Shown in pieces: positions 19,895-39,983 of a stretch of DNA of 48,828 nucleotides. Numbering within the stretch: position 1 is the first letter of the stretch; the number at the start of each line of letters is the position of its first letter. The notes under the pieces are model-generated. The model saw only the letters and a program-made list of their open reading frames with translations. It was not told the DNA's origin and did not search any database. The stretch lies in IMG/VR virus record IMGVR_UViG_3300045988_154803. One strand, written 5' to 3'. The translations under genes were made by a program, and so were the position numbers. The stretch is from a virus. Its lineage: Duplodnaviria > Heunggongvirae > Uroviricota > Caudoviricetes.

Positions 19895-20449
19895 TCAATG
19901 ATTCCCAGCCGGAAACCTGCGGTAAAGCGTGGATAAGGTAACATCGAAGATAATCGCTATCCGCTTACGTGAAACACCATTCGCAATAAGCCTTCCGATC
20001 TGTTCCCATTGCTCTGGTGCCAATTTTGAGCGGCGTCCTCCTATCCTGCCGTTAGCCCTTGCCACCGCCAATCCTGCACGCGTTCTTTCAATCATATTTT
20101 CCCGCTCCATCTCTGCGACTGCACTCAGCATCGTGTAGGCAAAGCGGCCAATTGAAGTGCTAATTTTTATCCCTTCCGTAATCGAAATAAACTCAATGTT
20201 GTTTGATAAAAAATGGTTAAGTAAATCAACAAGATGAATCAGAGAACGCCCCATTCGGTCCAGCTTCCAGACAATAACCGTATCGCCCGGCCGTAACACC
20301 TTAAGTAGCTTATCAAGTCCTGGTCGTTTTGATTTAGCACCGGATATTTTATCTTCAAAAATCTGGTCACATCCTGAACTCCTGAGCGCCTCCAGTTGTA
20401 ATTCCAAATTCTGGTCAAAAGTTGACACCCTCGCATAACCATATTGCAT
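19895..20449 (-). CDS. Gin/Hin/Cin/Pin-family serine DNA invertase
   Basis: 184 aa; YARVSTFDQ catalytic Ser motif, WKLDRMGRS, C-terminal HTH; alignable along full length to Mu Gin as recalled. Confidence 0.95.
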   Translation of the reverse strand: MQYGYARVSTFDQNLELQLEALRSSGCDQIFEDKISGAKSKRPGLDKLLKVLRPGDTVIVWKLDRMGRSLIHLVDLLNHFLSNNIEFISITEGIKISTSIGRFAYTMLSAVAEMERENMIERTRAGLAVARANGRIGGRRSKLAPEQWEQIGRLIANGVSRKRIAIIFDVTLSTLYRRFPAGNH

Positions 20450-20513
20450 ACTTTCTAAACCGCGATTGTTGCTAAAAGCGGAAAAAAATATCGTTCAGAC
20501 GACACAGAGGCAA

Positions 20514-20539
20514 TTCGCAAAAACCTCGGTTTACAGGAA
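20514..20539. repeat. Left inversion crossover site (gix/hix-like, inverted orientation)
   Basis: Reverse complement reads TTCCTGTAAACCGAGGTTTTTGCGAA; inverted repeat of right site. Confidence 0.8.
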
Positions 20540-20563
20540 ACGGTAAACCGAGCCGGGAACGCC

Positions 20564-21400
20564 GTGCAAAAAAATGGCGATACCTTGTCCGGTGGACTTA
20601 CTTTTGAAAACGACTCAATCCTTGCCTGGATTCGAAATACTGACTGGGCAAAGATTGGATTTAAAAATGATGCCGACAGCGATACTGATTCATATATGTG
20701 GTTTGAAACAGGTGACAACGGCAATGAATATTTCAAATGGAGAAGCCGCCAGAGTACCACAACAAAAGACCTGATGACGCTGAAATGGGATGCACTAAAT
20801 ATTCTTGTTAATGCCGTCATTAATGGCTGTCTTGGAGTTGGTACGACGAATGCACTAGGTGGTAGCTCTATTGTCCTTGGTGATAATGATACCGGATTTA
20901 AACAGAATGGAGACGGTATTCTTGATGTTTATGCTAACAGTCAGCGTGTATTCCGTTTTCAGAATGGAGTGGCTATTGCTTTTAAAAATATTCAGGTAGG
21001 GGATAGTAAAAAGTTCTCGCTATCCAGCTCTAACACATCCACGAAGAATATTACCTTTAATTTATGGGGTGCTTCCAACCGTCCAGTGGTTGCAGAGTTA
21101 GGCGATGAGTCCGGATGGCATTTCTATAGCCAGCGAAATACAGATAACTCGGTAATATTTGCTGTTAATGGTCAGATGCAACCCAGCAACTGGGGGAATT
21201 TTGATTCCCGCTATGTGAAAGATGTTCGCCTGGGTACGCGAGTTGTTCAATTGATGGCGCGAGGTGGTCGTTATGAAAAAGCCGGACACACGATTACCGG
21301 ATTAAGAATCATTGGTGAAGTAGATGGCGATGATGAAGCCATCTTCAGGCCGATACAAAAGTACATCAATGGCACATGGTATAACGTTGCGCAGGTGTAA
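20564..21400 (+). CDS. Alternative tail-fibre C-terminal variable domain (promoterless; fused to constant N-terminus after inversion)
   Basis: Frame open from crossover site; C-terminus ...RPIQKYINGTWYNVAQV parallels expressed fibre C-terminus ...RPIQYCINGTWYNAGSI. Confidence 0.75.
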   Translation: MQKNGDTLSGGLTFENDSILAWIRNTDWAKIGFKNDADSDTDSYMWFETGDNGNEYFKWRSRQSTTTKDLMTLKWDALNILVNAVINGCLGVGTTNALGGSSIVLGDNDTGFKQNGDGILDVYANSQRVFRFQNGVAIAFKNIQVGDSKKFSLSSSNTSTKNITFNLWGASNRPVVAELGDESGWHFYSQRNTDNSVIFAVNGQMQPSNWGNFDSRYVKDVRLGTRVVQLMARGGRYEKAGHTITGLRIIGEVDGDDEAIFRPIQKYINGTWYNVAQV

Positions 21401-26543: not shown

Positions 26544-26860
26544 TCTCTAACTCCTATCACAAGTTTTGGCCTAATAAAACCATCAGAAACGTCCGTTCTT
26601 TCAAAAGTAACAGAATGGATAATCGCTCTAGGCTCAAACTCACTAATTTTTTGAATTATTTCTCGTGTTGCTGTAGCAATAAAAATTGGGCTAGGGCTAT
26701 CAACAAGACTTGAATTAACTCCTAATTTTCTGGCATATGGTACAGTGCCAATCTGAGTATTAATAATAGTAGAGACATTTTGCAAAACTTCTTCTACAAC
26801 TGTTTTGGGCGACCAATCAATCGAGTAAGAAGGTGATGATATGGTAAACGTATTATTCAT
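26540..26860 (-). CDS. Baseplate protein, gpW/gp25-like
   Basis: 106 aa; position upstream of gpJ-like. Confidence 0.6.
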   Translation of the reverse strand: MNNTFTISSPSYSIDWSPKTVVEEVLQNVSTIINTQIGTVPYARKLGVNSSLVDSPSPIFIATATREIIQKISEFEPRAIIHSVTFERTDVSDGFIRPKLVIGVRE

Positions 26861-27324
26861 AATAATTTACCTAACGCACTTCTAGTTTTTGACTCTATAT
26901 TGCCAGCAATATCAACTAATGCTTCTTTCAGAGAGGTCTGTCCGACTTCCTGTAATTTAATGCCGACGATAATCACTCGTGGATTCCCAGTTGGACCGAA
27001 ATAAGTCCATGATTCCTCTATATCTGTAATTATAAAATTACCAAAATACTGAATACCAATTACAACAGGATTTACTTCCTGAATTGATTGCATTGTCCTA
27101 AGTAATGAAAGCGCAGCCAATGGAACAATGCCAAGTGTTGTATCCAACCGCATATTAAAACTAACTTCATCCAGATCTGGACCTATATCCTCCAGAACAG
27201 GTTTAAGCCCAATAACATCATGGCGCGCTACACGACGCTTTGACGTCCTTTTAAAATTGTTGAACGTATTCACCACTATTGATGAGGCAACAAAAGGCAT
27301 TGTACCAAGCATACCCACAATCAT
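26857..27324 (-). CDS. Putative baseplate/tail protein
   Basis: 155-aa ORF with coupled start/stop in baseplate operon. Confidence 0.35.
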   Translation of the reverse strand: MIVGMLGTMPFVASSIVVNTFNNFKRTSKRRVARHDVIGLKPVLEDIGPDLDEVSFNMRLDTTLGIVPLAALSLLRTMQSIQEVNPVVIGIQYFGNFIITDIEESWTYFGPTGNPRVIIVGIKLQEVGQTSLKEALVDIAGNIESKTRSALGKLL

Positions 27325-27941
27325 GCCTGAGCCTCCGTTGTCGGAGCGTATTCCCCCTGAGCCGTGTGATGGTGGCCTTTAGATTTAATCCCATCAACAT
27401 CTATATCACCACCAACAACCTTAACATCCCCAGAAATTGTAGCTGCAACACCTCCAGCAGAAGATCCTTTCATTCCACCTTTGAAGGTTAGTAATCCTTC
27501 AACTGTAGCATTTCCGGTAATGATGGTTTCTGGAGCATCAATAGTTACGGTTCCTGTAGCCTTAACGGTTACATCTCCGACAGCATCAACAAGGAGTAAA
27601 TTAGATTCTCTGTCTACCTCAATACGAGTTCCGTTATTAAATCTAATGACGCGTTTATTAACAGTATTAGATGGCGGCTTCTGTGTTTCATCATAAAAAC
27701 TACCAAGAATAAAACCTTGTTGCGGCCCTGCGGGATGAAAGATACACAAAACTTGCTCACCAATATCTGGCATCCAGTAATCAGCATTCTTATCCGTATT
27801 TTTCACAATAACTGATAACTTTGCCGAAGTGACGTTATCCTGATCATCGAAAGTAACTCTTGCTGTAACATCACCATCATCAATATCAGAAACAACGCCA
27901 ACTCTTATAGTCTGACGTAATAATGTTTCTAAATCATTCAT
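27321..27941 (-). CDS. Baseplate spike/hub protein, gpV-like
   Basis: 206 aa; Gly-rich beta-helix-like C-terminus with HHH. Confidence 0.65.
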   Translation of the reverse strand: MNDLETLLRQTIRVGVVSDIDDGDVTARVTFDDQDNVTSAKLSVIVKNTDKNADYWMPDIGEQVLCIFHPAGPQQGFILGSFYDETQKPPSNTVNKRVIRFNNGTRIEVDRESNLLLVDAVGDVTVKATGTVTIDAPETIITGNATVEGLLTFKGGMKGSSAGGVAATISGDVKVVGGDIDVDGIKSKGHHHTAQGEYAPTTEAQA

Positions 27942-27943
27942 AA

Positions 27944-28945
27944 TTAATACCCATTAATTACTCTTCGGACATCAATCGAGGTGGTATAACCACTAGCCCC
28001 AATTGAATGCACAGCTTTCGATATAAGATATTTTCCAGAAAATGAACCGAATCCGTCCAGATTTATAGTTACACCAGCTACCAATCTGGTGTCTCCAACC
28101 AATACTAAAGATCCTGTATTTTGATATCTATTTTTAAGCCGCAAAGCAGCCTTTGCCTTACGTTTTGCTTCATCTAAATTAGCTACCAGTTTTCTTATCT
28201 TAAGATTCGACCCTTCTTCTACGGATGGATCTACCCAAGTATACGAAAGCGACTTTCTTTTTTTAGGTACGCGATATTTGCACGTGCAACTTTTATACAA
28301 ATCTGTAGATTGTGTGCTAAAGCTATATCTGATTATCTCATCAATACCTAACGTAAGCGTAGCGATAGGATCTTTTTGCTCAAACATCTCTTGAGCAAAT
28401 ATTATTAATTGGCTATCAGTGACCTTTAACGACAACCCTTCATCCTGGCATAGTCGATGGAGAAATTTTAAATCGCTTTCCTCCATTTGATCTTCACGCG
28501 CATAATATGGATTACTATCACCATCAATAAGAAACAACAGTTCAAGGTTAGCTAATTTAGCTATAGAGGTTGCTATATCTTTAAGAGTTGTTTTTTCCCA
28601 TGCATTACTTTTTAAATCACGTCTAATGCCTGATGAAACAGGAACAGAAACAGCAGTCACCTCAACAACAGAAGGTGGTCCAGAGCAAGTTATGCCATCT
28701 ACCTGGAATTTCCCGCACTCAAGGACGATTTGATTTATAGGCTTAAAGCTCAAATCAATAAAATCACCCTTTTTAGGTGTCCAGTCTCCAGACCATTTCC
28801 CATCATCATTTTTTAATATAATAGAAATATCATCGACCTGACCATCTTCATTATCTGTATAAGACATTGACAAAACATCAGGTGACATATGAGCGGTAAT
28901 ATTTACATTCTGATATATAACATCAAAAAGCGTTTTACGTAACAC
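27944..28945 (-). CDS. Tail protein gpD-like (late control D / baseplate hub)
   Basis: 333 aa; position between gpX-like and spike. Confidence 0.7.
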   Translation of the reverse strand: MLRKTLFDVIYQNVNITAHMSPDVLSMSYTDNEDGQVDDISIILKNDDGKWSGDWTPKKGDFIDLSFKPINQIVLECGKFQVDGITCSGPPSVVEVTAVSVPVSSGIRRDLKSNAWEKTTLKDIATSIAKLANLELLFLIDGDSNPYYAREDQMEESDLKFLHRLCQDEGLSLKVTDSQLIIFAQEMFEQKDPIATLTLGIDEIIRYSFSTQSTDLYKSCTCKYRVPKKRKSLSYTWVDPSVEEGSNLKIRKLVANLDEAKRKAKAALRLKNRYQNTGSLVLVGDTRLVAGVTINLDGFGSFSGKYLISKAVHSIGASGYTTSIDVRRVINGY

Positions 28946-29153
28946 TATTGCGTCTCCACGGAGGCAAATTGTTTACTGATATTGGCATAACCGGAGCATC
29001 AGGAACTTTAAGAATAATTCCCGCAGAAAAAAGCACCGTAAAGCGGTGCTCAGTATTAGCATCAATAAGAAGATAAGACAGGTACTCATTACCATACAAC
29101 TTTAACGCGATACTATCCCATGAGTCCCCTTGAACCGTTCTATAATCATCCAA
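28935..29153 (-). CDS. Tail protein X-like (LysM-like)
   Basis: 72 aa; TVQGDSWDSIALKLYG LysM-like motif. Confidence 0.6.
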   Translation of the reverse strand: MDDYRTVQGDSWDSIALKLYGNEYLSYLLIDANTEHRFTVLFSAGIILKVPDAPVMPISVNNLPPWRRNSVT

Positions 29154-31938
29154 AACTTAATCTCCGTTGTTGGAACATATGAGCACTCAATTTCTTCTCA
29201 AAATCAGAATATCCCGCATCTAATGCTCTTTTAGCTGCCGCCTCAGTTTCCTTTGGTGAACCAGCCGGAAGATTGATTACAGGTGAATAGGTTATTCCAC
29301 CAGTCACAGCATTAACGTTCTGGCGAGGTCCAGAAGTCCCGGCGGCAGATATCCCGTGAGGTGATAAATTTGATTGCCCGAACTTGGTTGCTATTGCATT
29401 CTGTAAGCTGTTATTCCTGCTAACGCCTGATGCCAGAGTAGTCATTATTGCACCACCTGACTTTGTTAGCTGTGAGAATGGACCTTTTTTCGCGTCAGAG
29501 AACGGTAAATACTCACGTACAGAAGAAAAAACGCCTTTCACTTCATTAATTAAAGCATTTGCTTTTGATTTTATCCCAGTGATTAACGTCTCAATTATTT
29601 TTGCGCCTGACTCACTCCAGTTTATTCCAGACAAATAAGCCGTTACAGATTGGAATGCTCTTATAAAGAGTCCAACTGGTGAAAAACGCATAAAAACAGA
29701 TACCAGTGTATCTATGATTTTCTTTCCTGTTTCGCTCCAGTTAATACCAGAAAGGTAATTTGTTGTAAGTTTAAATGCTTTAATTAAGAACGGAAGCGGA
29801 GACATCCATTTAAAAGCACTAATTAATGTACTGTAAATTCTTACTCCTGCCGAACTCCAGTTTATGTTGGAAAGATAATCCCATGCTTTACCAAACATAG
29901 ATATAATCCATCCATTGAGATCAAAGTTTAAGATAAAGTTTTTTATAGCTTCAAACGATTTAACTGTATATTCCTTAACAGAAGGCCAAACTCTGACAGC
30001 ATAATCTCTGATCTTATCCCAGTTCTGATAGAGCAATATTCCTGCGGCAACCAGCGCAGATATAGCCATCTGAATCCACCCGAAGGGTGTTAGCTTTGTC
30101 GCTACAGATAAAGCCAGCATAGCTACCCTACACGCTATAACCACACTTTTCATGGTTAGAAACGCACCTGCCGCCATCACAATCTGAGACACAAAATTGG
30201 GGTTGTTAGCTACAAATTCACTAATTTTTGTAATCAGCGGAACCAAAACACTAAGCGCGGCATTCAAAGCAGGTTGCAAGGCCTGACCAAAACTTAATGA
30301 TGCATTGCTAGCCTGAATACGTAATTGTTTCAATCGCTCCGCATTGTCTTTCGTTATGTTGGCAAAATCGCGGTCAATAACAGCACTTCCAGCACCAAGA
30401 GATGTTGCTTTGATTCTCTGGTATTCCTTCCAGTTTTGAATCATCGGACGAACAAAGTTCTGAACCTGCATATCGCCAAATAGCTCACCAAGTAACTTCT
30501 GATCTCCGTTCTTAGTCATTTTCATGACAGAATGCATTGCAGCTTCGAATGGATTCTTCCCTTTTTTCTGCGCTGTTGTGACAATTTTATATAAATCTAC
30601 ACCGAAATTTTTCTTTGCTTTTTTTAGTGTTTCAGGGGAAAGTATTTTCGCCAAAAAGTTGTTCATATTATTAGCAGCCTCATCCGAAGTTGCAGCACCT
30701 TTGCGAGCTATCTGCAAAGCTGCCCCCATCGTCGCGGCGGCTTCTTTACCTCCCATTTTTAATGCCTGGAACTGAGCACCAAGCACAGGAAGATTTTTGG
30801 CCATATCTTTAAATTCAAAGTTTCCCTCTTTCCCTGCCTGAACCAGAATCCCCATTGCAGACTTCATTTGAGATGGATCAATCTTCAATGAGTCACTTAA
30901 TGTAAATGATGCTTTCGAGACATCGAGGATATCAGAGCCAGTAGCTGTAGCTGTTCGCCCAATAGTTAGTAGATTCGCCTGAGCCTCTTTATAATCCTGC
31001 CCAGCAGCGACGAGAAAACCCTGAGCGGCCTGAATATCAGATGCAAACTGGTTGGTGGCCGTTCCGGTAACAAGCATCGCCTGCCCCATCGCCTGAACTT
31101 CTTCCGGCTTCATATCTGCCGTAAGACCAATCATTTTGTTTTCACGATTGAAATTTGCTGCATTGTTAGCAGCAGCAAATGCACCAGCCGCTACAGCACC
31201 AGTTTGTAATCCTGACCTTACAAGTTGACTCTTTGCCTCACCAAGATGCTCTCGCTTCAATTCACGCTGCCTTTCCAACGCGCGGTTTAACTCCTCCTGA
31301 GCACGTTTTACTGCAAGAACATTTTTCCGTGCTTCAGCCAACGCATTTTTATAGCTGTTAATTTTATCAATACGTTGTTTTTCTAATGCCCGGTTAAGTT
31401 CCTCCTGCTGTTTTTTCACTTGCTGAACATTTGCTCTGGCTAAAGCCAAAGCCGTTCTGTAGCGGTTAACCTGCTCAACGCTACGGACCTGAGCCTCACG
31501 ATTACGATCAATGCTGGCTTTAAGCTCTTTCTCTCTTGAGGCCAAAGCTCTGGCAGATGTATCAGCTCCCTGATAGGCAGACTTTAAAGCGGCCAGTTCT
31601 TCACGCTGAGAACGTAGTGATGCTCGTAAATTCGATGAATGTGTTTTTGCCTTCTCAAAGTCACGAAGCATCGCTCTGGTTGGATTGGCCGTGTTTTTTA
31701 TTTGCTTCTGTAACTCTTCAACGCGAGCGGCAGCTTTATGATATTCGAGGGCAGTCTGTCCAACCTTTACTTTTACAGATTGTAGCTTTTGAATTTCCCC
31801 ATGTTCTTTCGTTAATCCAGCAAGCTCGGCATTTAATTTAGCAACAGCCTGATTAGCTGTAGTAAAACTTTTGGGGAGAGAGGCGGCAACTTTGCCGCCA
31901 ATTTCAAAAGCCAGCTTAAAGTTCTTATTGCTGGCCAT
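29146..31938 (-). CDS. Tail tape measure protein
   Basis: 930 aa; N-terminal coiled-coil repeats, central hydrophobic segment, size and position after chaperone. Confidence 0.9.
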   Translation of the reverse strand: MASNKNFKLAFEIGGKVAASLPKSFTTANQAVAKLNAELAGLTKEHGEIQKLQSVKVKVGQTALEYHKAAARVEELQKQIKNTANPTRAMLRDFEKAKTHSSNLRASLRSQREELAALKSAYQGADTSARALASREKELKASIDRNREAQVRSVEQVNRYRTALALARANVQQVKKQQEELNRALEKQRIDKINSYKNALAEARKNVLAVKRAQEELNRALERQRELKREHLGEAKSQLVRSGLQTGAVAAGAFAAANNAANFNRENKMIGLTADMKPEEVQAMGQAMLVTGTATNQFASDIQAAQGFLVAAGQDYKEAQANLLTIGRTATATGSDILDVSKASFTLSDSLKIDPSQMKSAMGILVQAGKEGNFEFKDMAKNLPVLGAQFQALKMGGKEAAATMGAALQIARKGAATSDEAANNMNNFLAKILSPETLKKAKKNFGVDLYKIVTTAQKKGKNPFEAAMHSVMKMTKNGDQKLLGELFGDMQVQNFVRPMIQNWKEYQRIKATSLGAGSAVIDRDFANITKDNAERLKQLRIQASNASLSFGQALQPALNAALSVLVPLITKISEFVANNPNFVSQIVMAAGAFLTMKSVVIACRVAMLALSVATKLTPFGWIQMAISALVAAGILLYQNWDKIRDYAVRVWPSVKEYTVKSFEAIKNFILNFDLNGWIISMFGKAWDYLSNINWSSAGVRIYSTLISAFKWMSPLPFLIKAFKLTTNYLSGINWSETGKKIIDTLVSVFMRFSPVGLFIRAFQSVTAYLSGINWSESGAKIIETLITGIKSKANALINEVKGVFSSVREYLPFSDAKKGPFSQLTKSGGAIMTTLASGVSRNNSLQNAIATKFGQSNLSPHGISAAGTSGPRQNVNAVTGGITYSPVINLPAGSPKETEAAAKRALDAGYSDFEKKLSAHMFQQRRLSFG

Positions 31939-31943
31939 TAGTA

Positions 31944-32374
31944 TTAATCCTCATTAAACACATCAATCCATGCGACGATTCGCCTCAACCGAAGCGAAAG
32001 CCAGTAGGATATAGGTGTTGATTGAGATGATTGAGATAGAGAACTCGCGGCCCTCATTATTTGCTTATCAATAGGTTTTTGCTCATCAAAACCTACGAGA
32101 GCAAAAAATTCTGTACCTTTTGACAAACTTTAACAAAGTCTTTCGCTGGCAATCCATTCAGATACTCTATTGGACGGCCAATACAGCGAGCAGCCAAGGC
32201 TGCATGGACTTTATTATCAAGTGATGTTTGAACTGAAACATGCCCTTGAGATTGCAGTAAGTCCGATACCTCTAAAATATCACTGCCTTTTAGGTTGTCT
32301 AAATCAAGGTTGAGTTCAGTCACCGGCTCAAAGTCTTCAAAACGATATTCTTTACTTAATTTAACGGTTTCCAT
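31944..32374 (-). CDS. Tail assembly chaperone pair with programmed -1 frameshift (G/GT- or E/E'-like)
   Basis: 93-aa ORF (32093-32374) overlaps 60-aa ORF (31944-32126) in -1 frame; slippery T_TTT_TTG at 32102-32108 on minus strand. Confidence 0.7.
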
Positions 32375-32383
32375 TTTGTCACC

Positions 32384-32905
32384 TTATAAACCTAAATCAT
32401 CACGAACGCTTTTTAATATATCTTCACCATCAAAGATACAAATAAAGTTCAACTTATCAATTTCCAAGACTTCTTTTCCATCAATAAATAATTTGATATA
32501 GAGAACTTCAAATTCATTCTCTGAATCAGTAGCCTTTGCCACCTGTAGCGAACCTAAATCCAGTTTTTTAGGGTTTAGCTTCATTGAAGCCCGAATAGGA
32601 ACCGTTTTATATTTTCCTGTTCCTGCATCATAAACCTGCTGGCTACCGCGAAAATCTACCTGATGCGATGAGGATAGAAATAATTTTGTACCAGCAGAGG
32701 TCAGAGTTCGCCATTTAAGAGAGACAGTCATTGGTTTGAAATGCCCCAGCGTTCCGCTCTCAAGCTCTCCAGCGATACCTGCACCACTAACAGTTTCTGT
32801 CATCATCTCAATTGATGGCAGCTTTGCGTCAGCAACACCGATAATACGGTTTCCCTCACCGTATACTGTAAAGTTAATAAGTCTCTCAGGAATTTGATTG
32901 CTCAA
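32384..32905 (-). CDS. Tail tube protein (P2 FII-like)
   Basis: 173 aa; directly downstream of sheath. Confidence 0.75.
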   Translation of the reverse strand: MSNQIPERLINFTVYGEGNRIIGVADAKLPSIEMMTETVSGAGIAGELESGTLGHFKPMTVSLKWRTLTSAGTKLFLSSSHQVDFRGSQQVYDAGTGKYKTVPIRASMKLNPKKLDLGSLQVAKATDSENEFEVLYIKLFIDGKEVLEIDKLNFICIFDGEDILKSVRDDLGL

Positions 32906-32921
32906 AGCAACCTCCTATTAT

Positions 32922-34385
32922 TTATTCAGAAAACAAGTTCAGCAGATAATCAGGATTATATTCCATGACGAACTCTATATCTCTGGCAGGTGAGAATGGT
33001 GTCATTTTTACATGGAATTTAACAATCCCGTCCATCAATGACGTAATCGTGTTTTCAGATTGATCAAAGGTAACAACACCACCTGCAATATCCTGATTAC
33101 CTGTGAGGCCGTTAAGCCAAATATTCGCACTTGTAACAATCGATTCAATTAATCGACGGTTTGCAGGATTGTCTATTTTTGACCAATGCGAAAGAATTAA
33201 CGTATTACCCACCCAGTTAAACATACGTCGGCAAACACGAAATGCGTCTTTGGGGTCTGTAGATGTTGGATAAATAGCATTACGGTTTCCCCATGATTTC
33301 CAACCATCAAAATTAAGGCTTGTTACAATCCCCTGTCCATTTAAGTAGTTTGCCTGGCTAATGTTAAGCCATACTTCACTGCCATCTTTACGTACAGCAC
33401 CGTCCATCTGTAGTTTTATATTTGACGGAGAACGTGATGGAATATCACCATACTGACTATCCAGCAAGCATGTTGCGGCCGCTAAATGGGTTGAGTGATG
33501 GTAAATATTGTCACCAAGTTTCACCATCGGCCAGCACACTGTCTGGTTAGCGGCCATGTGATTATTGTTCTGTTTCCATTCAGGAACAGCCGAGTAATCA
33601 CTGATAGTAGATTTATCGGTCGGTGCATCAGTTATGGCTTCTGCTTTGAACAATTCACTAATCAACGCGGCTTTAGCCGCCATTAGCTGACCAACTTCAC
33701 TATCAGAACTAAATCCAGGCGCAATCACTTGTCCAGGAACCAACTTGAAGCGGGGATACACATCAGACAGTAACTCAAGCCCTGTATTGGCTTTAGTGTT
33801 GGAATCCACACCACCGATAATGTCATTTTTAGTTACGGCACCGGGATCAAGATGCGTATAACTAACCTTAAGAGTAGCGTCTTTTTCGGTAATTTTTCCT
33901 CCGCTAATAGCGGTAATGACCGTATAGCCATTATCATCCAGCGCCAGCACATAATCGGTGTCAACCGTTAATCCTGCCGAATCACCATCTGCTTTTTTCA
34001 CAACAACAGATTTATATAAGACACCATCGTTAGAGAGCGTACCTTTCCCGCCAGAAAGTTTTACTACCTCATCAGTTACGTCTTTCTTATGCTTTGCTGG
34101 ATCAAGCACATTAATAAATACAACTGGCGCAACACCATATATTCCAAATGCGACTTTAATTACTTCGCTTAAAGTATATTTCTCGAAGTTTGTGCTATAT
34201 CCTATTTTAGATACGGCCTCTGCGTATGTATAAGCAATGATAGGTTTATTTACCGCTGAGGCTGGATCTTCTAACTGATTAACAGGAGCTGTACCAAATG
34301 CGACAATCAACCCAGCACTAACTTGTACTGGAGGAGTTATAGATGTAGCCAGCTCAGATATATAAATACCGTGGCGATATCCCAT
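32922..34385 (-). CDS. Contractile tail sheath protein (P2 FI-like)
   Basis: 487 aa; position and size. Confidence 0.85.
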   Translation of the reverse strand: MGYRHGIYISELATSITPPVQVSAGLIVAFGTAPVNQLEDPASAVNKPIIAYTYAEAVSKIGYSTNFEKYTLSEVIKVAFGIYGVAPVVFINVLDPAKHKKDVTDEVVKLSGGKGTLSNDGVLYKSVVVKKADGDSAGLTVDTDYVLALDDNGYTVITAISGGKITEKDATLKVSYTHLDPGAVTKNDIIGGVDSNTKANTGLELLSDVYPRFKLVPGQVIAPGFSSDSEVGQLMAAKAALISELFKAEAITDAPTDKSTISDYSAVPEWKQNNNHMAANQTVCWPMVKLGDNIYHHSTHLAAATCLLDSQYGDIPSRSPSNIKLQMDGAVRKDGSEVWLNISQANYLNGQGIVTSLNFDGWKSWGNRNAIYPTSTDPKDAFRVCRRMFNWVGNTLILSHWSKIDNPANRRLIESIVTSANIWLNGLTGNQDIAGGVVTFDQSENTITSLMDGIVKFHVKMTPFSPARDIEFVMEYNPDYLLNLFSE

Positions 34386-38440: not shown

Positions 38441-39983
38441 TTACCTCAGAAACAGGAGGCGTAATCAGCCCCAACTCACGGCGAGCATTCTCTTCTCTGC
38501 CACAAATTTGTGCGGTTTCTTCCCAGTTAAGACCTGACATTTCAGCCGCTTCCTTTTCACGGGTAGAGAATGTTTCCTCAACACGCAGTTTTGCAGCTTT
38601 GACTTCTTTAAGGGGATCTAATTGGCCTTGTGATGGGCCATACCATTGAGCGCCACTCCATGCAGCGCGATATTCAGGCCCATAAAAAAAACCAGGGGCA
38701 ATAACACGACCTTTAGCAACGGCTTCGGCCAACCATTCCTCATAGATCGGTTGGCAAAATGACTGAACCATCCAGTCACGTCGCATACGGAACATTTTCC
38801 AGGCTTCAAGTAATGCGACCCTGCTTGCGCTATAACTTGCTGTAAAATGCTTTACCAAGAGTTCGTAAGGGAGTTCTAAAGCAGCCCCAATTTGACGGCA
38901 TATGGCGACAACAAAACCATCAAATGCCGTATTTGGTCGCCCGGGATTTGCTGTATCTATCGACTCACCTTCACCCAAACTTACTATGGAGCCATTCCCC
39001 ATTTCTTGGGTGTTATCATCATGGTTATCGATCTGCTCGTACTGAGGGATACCCGATTCACCGACTGGTCCATCAGGAGCGTCTGTTTTAATAAAGACAG
39101 TAAACATCCCTGACACAACCGCAGCAACCAATTCAGCATCGGTGTATCGTCCTAACTGCTTCAATGCTTCAATAACAGGAGCAAGGACAGGAACGCCACG
39201 ACGTTGCCCAGGCCTTTCAAAATCCTGCATGACATGCAGAATATTTCTTCTTCCTGTTTTACTCCCATATGCGGGAATACGTTCCCACTTGCGGGTTACA
39301 AAACCAGAAGTCCCGGCTGGGTGATGTTTTGCAACCCAGTACGCCACAGGCTCGCTAAATTCACCAACCTCTACGCCACCGTAAAGATTTGGTATAAAAC
39401 GATCCTCTGGATTGCAAACACGATCACCTTCAATTAAATAGACGCACAAATCATATATAACACCCTTACGCTTAATAACTGGTAGCGCAGCAAATATATC
39501 GCCAGATGTTAACGCAGATATTTGGACCAATGATTGCAATTGTCCAAAAGTACACATTCTTGATGCATCACAATTTGGAGAATCAGCCCATAATCTAAAC
39601 TCACGCTCAACATGCTTTTCCCATGCTCGCGCTTCTTCCTGCGTCATCCCCAAGAAATCGGCATCAATGTTCGCATTTAGTTTTAAACCGGAACCAACAA
39701 CGTTTGTCCTGATAGTTTTTATTGCGCCAACCGATAGCGGGTTTCCCATGAAGAGATCACGAGAACGCTCACGCAATTTATCTATATTTTTAACAATATC
39801 ATCATCAGGAGAACCAGCTTTACTAAACCAACCCCTTAATGATTTTTTATGAGTGCTTGCACCATGACGTGAATATCCAAGGTTATTAATACCTTCAAGT
39901 GCTTCTAACCGTTTTCTTGCCAAAGCTCGATTTAATGCCCTCTGAGGTGAAAACGGCGCAATAACTCGATCAAGAATATTCAT
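38409..39983 (-). CDS. Portal protein (lambda gpB-like)
   Basis: 524 aa; between gpW-like and protease. Confidence 0.8.
   Translation of the reverse strand: MNILDRVIAPFSPQRALNRALARKRLEALEGINNLGYSRHGASTHKKSLRGWFSKAGSPDDDIVKNIDKLRERSRDLFMGNPLSVGAIKTIRTNVVGSGLKLNANIDADFLGMTQEEARAWEKHVEREFRLWADSPNCDASRMCTFGQLQSLVQISALTSGDIFAALPVIKRKGVIYDLCVYLIEGDRVCNPEDRFIPNLYGGVEVGEFSEPVAYWVAKHHPAGTSGFVTRKWERIPAYGSKTGRRNILHVMQDFERPGQRRGVPVLAPVIEALKQLGRYTDAELVAAVVSGMFTVFIKTDAPDGPVGESGIPQYEQIDNHDDNTQEMGNGSIVSLGEGESIDTANPGRPNTAFDGFVVAICRQIGAALELPYELLVKHFTASYSASRVALLEAWKMFRMRRDWMVQSFCQPIYEEWLAEAVAKGRVIAPGFFYGPEYRAAWSGAQWYGPSQGQLDPLKEVKAAKLRVEETFSTREKEAAEMSGLNWEETAQICGREENARRELGLITPPVSEVNEQNMETDDA

Follow-up and report, generated by a model that had tools for sequence, protein, structure and literature searches.

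The tail gene region of the window (i.e. the whole 48,828-nt stretch of viral DNA that was analysed) very probably encodes a tail assembly chaperone pair of the P2 E/E+E' type (lambda G/GT type) that is expressed through programmed -1 ribosomal frameshifting. A short and a C-terminally extended chaperone, comparable to lambda G/GT and P2 E/E+E', had been proposed in an earlier note on this DNA, and the comparison of homologues supports this proposal. The mechanism, the heptamer and the annotation of one homologue were already known; what is new is only that a widespread lineage of ~48-kb phage-plasmids has such a site. The features of the region are collected in Table 1.

Table 1. Coordinates of the chaperone region, of the neighbouring tail genes and of the hairpins found in homologues (window positions, except where a homologue is named)
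Feature	Position	Strand	Description
Sheath gene	34385..32922	-	phrog_23, upstream
Tail tube gene, P2 FII-type	32384..32905	-	PF04985 Phage_tube, 3.5e-44; adjoins the chaperone gene upstream
Zero-frame tail assembly chaperone gene, P2 E / lambda G analogue	32093..32374	-	93 aa, ATG 32374, TAG 32095..32093
Upstream GGT, within AAG GTA	32115..32117	-	7-9 nt 5' of the heptamer
Slippery heptamer T_TTT_TTG	32102..32108	-	X_XXY_YYZ phase, codons AA[T TTT TTG], TAG 6 nt downstream
Candidate weak hairpin GUAGGUUUU-GAUGAGCA-AAAACCUAU	32071..32096	-	9 bp, A/U-rich, -8.5 kcal/mol, 5-nt spacer after the heptamer
-1-frame extension, P2 E' / lambda T analogue	31944..32101	-	~52 aa after the shift, ALVGFDEQKPIDKQIMRAASSLSQSSQSTPISYWLSLRLRRIVAWIDVFNED, TAA 31946..31944
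Predicted fusion CDS, E+E' / GT analogue	join(32374..32102, 32102..31944)	-	143 aa
Tape measure gene	29146..31938	-	PF10145 PhageMin_Tail, 1e-20; adjoins the chaperone pair downstream
P2-type X, D, V and U proteins	29153..26857	-	Pfam
Strong homologue hairpins	L003 1471-1530; L005 1456-1515; L004 1471-1545; L033 from ~1795		

The chaperone gene is preceded by an AAGGTG Shine-Dalgarno sequence (32385..32380, minus strand). Its frames were recomputed and its 3' end reads ...CAG AAT TTT TTG CTC TCG TAG on the minus strand, identical to the ending that had been given for the 93-aa ORF. The 93-aa protein falls in phrog_3140, ‘tail assembly chaperone’ (8.7e-43, PHROGs), and matched the Pfam family PF10109 (Phage_TAC_7, the tail assembly chaperones E / 41 / 14) with 25.4 bits (E 1.5e-5, profile positions 1-78 out of 79), the curated gathering threshold of this family being 25 bits. 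On these scores, membership of the N-terminal domain in PF10109 appears marginal but supported, phrog_3140 backing it. The 143-aa fusion scored 23.7 bits against the same profile, i.e. below the 25-bit cut-off, and scores of 29-30 bits were obtained for the homologues of phages X29 and KLER1-1 and of 47.8 bits for P2. The PF10109 match stops exactly at the slip site, covering residues 3-91 here and 7-85 in P2 E+E'. No NCBIfam model matched the window fusion, and none matched P2 E+E' either; a sequence search of solved structures with the fusion gave nothing at E <= 1.

The genes are ordered sheath, tube (PF04985), chaperone (PF10109) and tape measure (PF10145), so that the chaperone gene is placed between the tube and tape measure genes, as in the G/GT-type class. 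The tube-chaperone-tape measure order that had been read from the sequence is thereby borne out by the three family matches, and the identity of the tail module is fixed as P2-type, with a contractile tail.

On the plus strand, the heptamer is CAAAAAA (32102-32108); the canonical T_TTT_TTG had been placed at these positions, and both its coordinates and its zero-frame phase proved correct. The -1 ORF (32126..31944) is 60 aa long when counted from its TTG and is open from 32129, with an offset of 248 nt that corresponds to the -1 frame. It overlaps the 93-aa ORF by 34 nt, the in-phase heptamer lying within this overlap, and fills the gap to the tape measure gene: its TAA lies 6 nt before the tape-measure ATG (31938), and the tape-measure ribosome-binding site GAGGA falls within the end of the extension. 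The +1 frame at the 3' end of the chaperone gene closes after 23 aa.

A plain reading of the -1 ORF gives ...EFFALVGFDEQKPIDKQIMRAASSLSQ..., as the earlier note had stated, and its claim that this reading is the 60-aa ORF at 31944-32126 stands. The junction that it implied, ...NFFALVG..., does not, and we replace it by a predicted ...VQNFL/ALVGFDEQ... (the slash marking the shift), because in a tandem slip on T_TTT_TTG the A site is already occupied by the Leu-tRNA. The peptide predicted across the junction is ...VQNFLALVGFDEQK... for a tandem ribosomal slip, and ...VQNFFALVGFDEQK... for a slip in the P site only or for transcriptional slippage.

The extension matched phrog_30074 (2e-37, PHROGs). 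The phrog_3140 score rose from 147.7 bits for the short protein to 162.4 bits for the fusion, with an alignment reaching residue 137, and the alignment of the fusion with seven homologous fusions, P2 included, is unbroken over the junction. As a chance control, in-frame X_XXY_YYZ heptamers (n = 99) were collected from the window ORFs of at least 80 aa (n = 114); two of these 99 heptamers lie at most 60 nt from the stop with a -1 frame of at least 30 aa beyond it, one of them being the chaperone site. The other, a run of seven T at 20488..20482, was rejected as belonging to a spurious antisense ORF that lies opposite a tail-fibre gene and upstream of the invertase gene; the latter, starting at an ATG of its own, accounts for the ‘-1 extension’.

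The arrangement is kept despite low protein identity. In a set of 19 homologues (26-53 % identical by tblastn, P2 being matched through the Pfam profile only), T_TTT_TTN is found at the homologous column in 17 cases, which answers the comparison of slippery site positions that the earlier note had suggested as a check; the -1 frame continues for 45-67 aa beyond the stop in every readable homologue. Six annotated phages have N-terminal domains 34-46 % identical to that of the window protein, i.e. Vibrio X29 and R20L, Pararheinheimera KLER1-1, Faecalibacterium Epona, Paenibacillus Lily and Acinetobacter HFM1. All six carry the in-phase T_TTT_TTG (T_TTT_TTC in Epona) at the ...[NS]F[LF]... position, with the stop 6-18 nt further on and a -1 ORF of 60-92 aa. 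This ORF ends at most 25 nt from the tape-measure start in five of the six (with an overlap in Epona); that of HFM1 stops 368 nt ahead of the annotated tape-measure start.

Ten further distinct homologues, 26-53 % identical, were taken from viral metagenome contigs. T_TTT_TT[G/A/C] occupies the same column in eight of them, and the non-canonical G_TTT_TTG is found in three contigs representing two distinct sequences (L031, identical to L032, and L034). In the nine readable cases (contig L021 ends just after the stop), reading in the -1 frame can go on for 45-67 aa beyond the stop, and the +1 frame shuts within 9 aa in all except two.

The nucleotides of the slippery site bear signatures of selection at synonymous positions. 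In 17 of the 19 homologues, the codon that precedes Phe has T at its wobble position, against a background frequency of third-position T of 0.24 in the 19-sequence register, although the residue that it specifies varies between N, S, G, T, V and D. Phe itself is encoded by TTT in 19/19 homologues and by TTC in none. Position 7 of the heptamer is G, C or A and never T in this set, and the T run does not exceed six. Among close relatives (nine haplotypes, 95-100 % identical), the heptamer is invariant. This family offers a clean comparative example of selection at synonymous positions keeping a slippery site, the mechanism itself being not new.

The sequence comparisons likewise show purifying selection on the -1-frame peptide. 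We built an HMM solely from -1-frame peptides, contributed by 16 distant homologues, and ran it over all six-frame segments of the window (n = 1087); its sole match was 32129..31947 (E 4.9e-7, the next best being 0.5), through the motif TP[IV].YW[LM]..P[LI]..L..W. In the nine haplotypes, 26 of the 35 variable sites upstream of the heptamer are at frame-0 third positions, and 7 of the 11 past the zero-frame stop are at third positions of frame -1; these seven are all synonymous in frame -1 and each would alter a frame-0 residue. In the homologue register, a Gly (GGN in the -1 frame) is kept four codons past the heptamer, within the overlap. As this conserved Gly sits upstream of any possible internal start, conservation of the -1 frame starts at the slip site.

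These data bear directly on the possibility that the -1 ORF is an independent small gene with its own start, at TTG 32126 or ATG 32057. Its equivalents are indeed annotated as separate CDS in R20L (gp18), KLER1-1 (gp19) and Lily (gp16), and a 37-aa version from the internal ATG is present in NCBI nr. However, neither TTG 32126 nor the internal ATG 32057 is preceded by a Shine-Dalgarno sequence when the DNA is read, start positions vary among homologues, and conservation in the -1 frame, including that of the Gly, begins at the slip site inside the overlap. An independent gene would moreover leave unexplained why the T completing the heptamer, a synonymous position, is under selection. We regard this explanation as very improbable and retain ribosomal frameshifting into the -1 ORF.

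The profile of the -1 extension also weakly matches the C-terminal end of the 93-aa protein (residues 71-92, 32096-32164), PIEYLNGLPAKDFVKVCQKVQ being aligned with PISYWLSLRLRRIVAWIDV of the extension (31950-32020); this match is not significant (E 0.5). It is a hint that an ancient duplication of the C-terminal helix motif of the zero-frame protein may have given rise to the extension.

Three public assemblies (L040-L042) carry seven T at the site (around position 870, corresponding to window 32103-32108) and encode the fused ...NFFALVG... protein as one ORF (MCZ5750063.1). They lend some weight to an artefact or decay, i.e. one gene of 143 aa split in the window by a homopolymer error or by a recent frameshift mutation, or a -1 ORF that is only non-functional open space. 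Yet the exact 93-aa protein is found on at least 1000 contigs versus three contigs with T7, and six T are present in 71 complete E. coli plasmids and 5 phage genomes (all copies examined, the region being at least 98 % identical). The -1 peptide is, besides, under purifying selection, and the -1 arrangement is found in distant homologues too. Assembly errors are suggested in two of the three T7 contigs because the adjoining tape-measure gene contains other indels, several of which lie within homopolymer runs in L041. L042, of which T7 is the sole change, could be a genuine ‘fusion-only’ variant. A sequencing error is for practical purposes excluded, artefact or decay is the least probable of the explanations considered here, and an intact, frameshifted gene pair is the reading that we keep.

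The same T7 variants are relevant to transcriptional slippage, in which RNA polymerase would add an extra U on the six T in some transcripts, ...NFFALVG... then being made by standard translation. The site is a homopolymer of six T, and the existence of DNA-level T7 variants in three assemblies, which encode exactly the fused protein, suggests that the run is prone to slippage by polymerases. Efficient bacterial transcriptional slippage generally requires about 8-9 or more identical bases, against which the present run is short. Transcriptional slippage is used by other length-determining systems (PMC5009743), but the P2 event at the identical heptamer was described as a translational frameshift (PMC3091744). 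The run is, moreover, never longer than six T in the 19 homologues, and the conserved X_XXY_YYZ phase is relevant to ribosomal re-pairing only. Because the run is short and never extended and its codon phase is strictly conserved, ribosomal re-pairing fits better, and we hold transcriptional slippage to be quite unlikely.

Elements that could stimulate a ribosomal shift were sought on both sides of the heptamer. Downstream, the candidate hairpin includes the zero-frame UAG; compared with shuffled sequences, its energy is not significant (z -1.3 to -1.8), and among close relatives its stem is unchanged, substitutions falling within the loop. No significant structure was found 5-9 nt downstream of the heptamer, and no common downstream structure was seen across homologues. 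A search of 31800-32500 against Rfam at a permissive threshold returned only a chance mir-2 match (E 0.16). We rejected downstream structure as a conserved stimulator, strong structure being found only in the Vibrio, KLER1-1 and L033 homologues. In Vibrio X29, R20L, KLER1-1 and L033, strong hairpins lie just 3' of the heptamer (z -2.8 to -5.1). P2 is reported to lack a strong downstream RNA structure (PMC3091744), which is a likeness to the window. Since the hairpin is strong in some homologues and absent in the window, P2 and most others, the efficiency of frameshifting may be tuned differently within one family.

Upstream, the wobble G of the GGT(G) element (column -9) is kept in 14 of the 19 homologues (L003-L034, P2 being L010), against a background third-position G of 0.27; the codons concerned encode K, A, L, R, T and V. 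It is speculative to see in this GGT a Shine-Dalgarno-like element. In dnaX, the upstream Shine-Dalgarno sequence has a longer spacing than GGT has here. A broader proposal can be formulated, in which the PF10109 family, P2 included, would carry a so far undescribed stimulator on the 5' side of the heptamer, G-G-U(G) at a distance of 6-9 nt, acting through anti-Shine-Dalgarno pairing or otherwise on the ribosome and setting efficiency without downstream structure, with T6-to-T7 DNA variants as switches that lock the fused form. We consider this proposal doubtful.

In the following course of events, we infer that slippage is ribosomal, how efficient it is, which residue stands at the junction and how the two domains share their tasks. 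The majority of ribosomes starting at ATG 32374 would terminate at TAG 32095..32093 and yield the 93-aa chaperone. In a minority, the P-site tRNA-Phe, paired with UUU, and the A-site tRNA-Leu, paired with UUG, would slip back by one base on U_UUU_UUG, and these ribosomes would read the -1 frame until TAA 31946..31944, giving a 143-aa protein, ...VQNFL/ALVGFDEQ...VFNED, that would keep the N-terminal domain of the 93-aa form. By analogy with lambda, the shared domain may coat the tape measure protein encoded just downstream, and the extension, present at a fixed low ratio, may recruit the tube protein, after which the tube and then the sheath would polymerise to the measured length. A literature search found no publication reporting production of the fusion in this phage lineage.

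The window is an essentially complete phage-plasmid of ~48.8 kb. Plasmids of 47-52 kb that match its tail region with 98-100 % identity occur in 71 of 5426 complete E. coli genomes, with no chromosomal copies, and one of them, p48 of strain 1428, carries RepA, ParA and RelE/ParE beside a complete set of myovirus genes. The 48,488-bp plasmid of E. coli ATCC 25922 shows 99.4 % identity in the chaperone region. Among phages, Yersinia vB_YpM_39/41/44 and E. coli vB_EcoM-613R2 share 98-99 % identity with the tail region. In RefSeq, the short protein of the 71 E. coli phage-plasmids is named ‘phage tail assembly protein’ and the following 155 nt are left empty. In GenBank, the extension is unannotated in Yersinia vB_YpM_39/41/44 and in E. 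coli vB_EcoM-613R2 and 473R2, and the phage entries list the short protein as hypothetical. We recommend that the 155 nt separating the chaperone gene from the tape measure gene be annotated as part of a joined CDS with ribosomal slippage.

Two other observations were made on this lineage. A 72-aa Phage_tail_X (LysM-like) ORF located between the tape measure and gpD genes (window 28935-29153) is annotated in ON470591 and absent from the RefSeq annotation of p48 (gap 39303-39504). In addition, a serine-recombinase/invertase gene (19895..20449, minus strand) adjoins a tail-fibre C-terminal segment of opposite strand (window 19895-21400), and the matching RefSeq plasmid has tail-fibre and fibre-assembly gene fragments in opposed orientation. 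Window 19895-21400 has the appearance of a Mu G / P1 C-type invertible segment for host range.

Four described systems come closest to the window pair. In P2, a -1 shift at TTTTTTG, which takes place after the terminal G of the heptamer, in agreement with the junction predicted for the window, leads to E (91 aa) and E+E' (142 aa) (PMC3091744). The P2 record (NC_001895) has GG[T TTT TTG] at ...GFL... and its -1 shift site is annotated. The likeness includes an identical, equally phased T_TTT_TTG where the PF10109 domain ends in ...FL, products of similar size (91/142 aa in P2 versus 93/143 aa in the window), and a contractile tail with the order FI sheath, FII tube, E and T and with P2-type X, D, V and U nearby. 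The two differ in the distance from heptamer to stop (18 nt in P2, 6 nt in the window), and the head, replication and plasmid-maintenance modules of the window element are not P2-like. In a BLASTP comparison with P2 E and E+E', the match was not significant (E 0.21), the best local match being 13 residues that end at the slip site. The window fusion had no match to PF06528 (Phage_P2_GpE) at E <= 1, P2 E+E' scoring 76.3 bits, which leaves it outside this family, and the HMM of -1 peptides gave only 1.6-2.5 bits on P2, the extension showing no significant similarity to E'. Because PF06528 is unmatched and P2 reaches only 1.6-2.5 bits, homology of the C-terminal part to the experimentally studied case is not established.

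P2 E/E+E' is the contractile-tail version of lambda G/GT. Xu, Hendrix and Duda are said to have described in 2004 a conserved class of tail chaperone frameshifts of the G/GT type. To our knowledge, the roles of the G and T domains have been established experimentally for lambda only. The ratio of G to GT in lambda is about 30:1, the shared part binding the tape measure protein and the T part the major tail protein (PMC5009743). In lambda as in the window, a -1 frameshift is located near the end of a gene lying between the major tail and tape measure genes, with a short and an extended chaperone, in lambda at a fixed ratio (PMC5009743). In contrast, the slippery site of lambda is G_GGA_AAG, its tail is non-contractile and no sequence similarity to the window pair is detectable.

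The Mu-like gp41 and FluMu gp41 chaperones are other named members of PF10109 and share with the window pair this family and the location between tube and tape measure genes. The closest annotated homologue is the pair of gpG and gpGT analogues of X29 / phi 2 (YP_009043921 / YP_009091831), with 45 % identity in the N-terminal domain. It has the same heptamer 6 nt before the stop, a 60-aa -1 ORF and the TPIPYW..MPL motif, and differs by a strong downstream hairpin (z -4.7) that is absent in the window. The RefSeq record of X29 labels the joined CDS ‘lambda gpGT analog’, an annotation that is, like ours, bioinformatic only, and the genome announcement likewise states a gpGT analogue (PMC5690320). 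Taken on these comparisons, the window pair would work like P2 E/E+E' and appears to share its N-terminal family, while forming a separate subfamily with X29, KLER1-1, Lily and their relatives.
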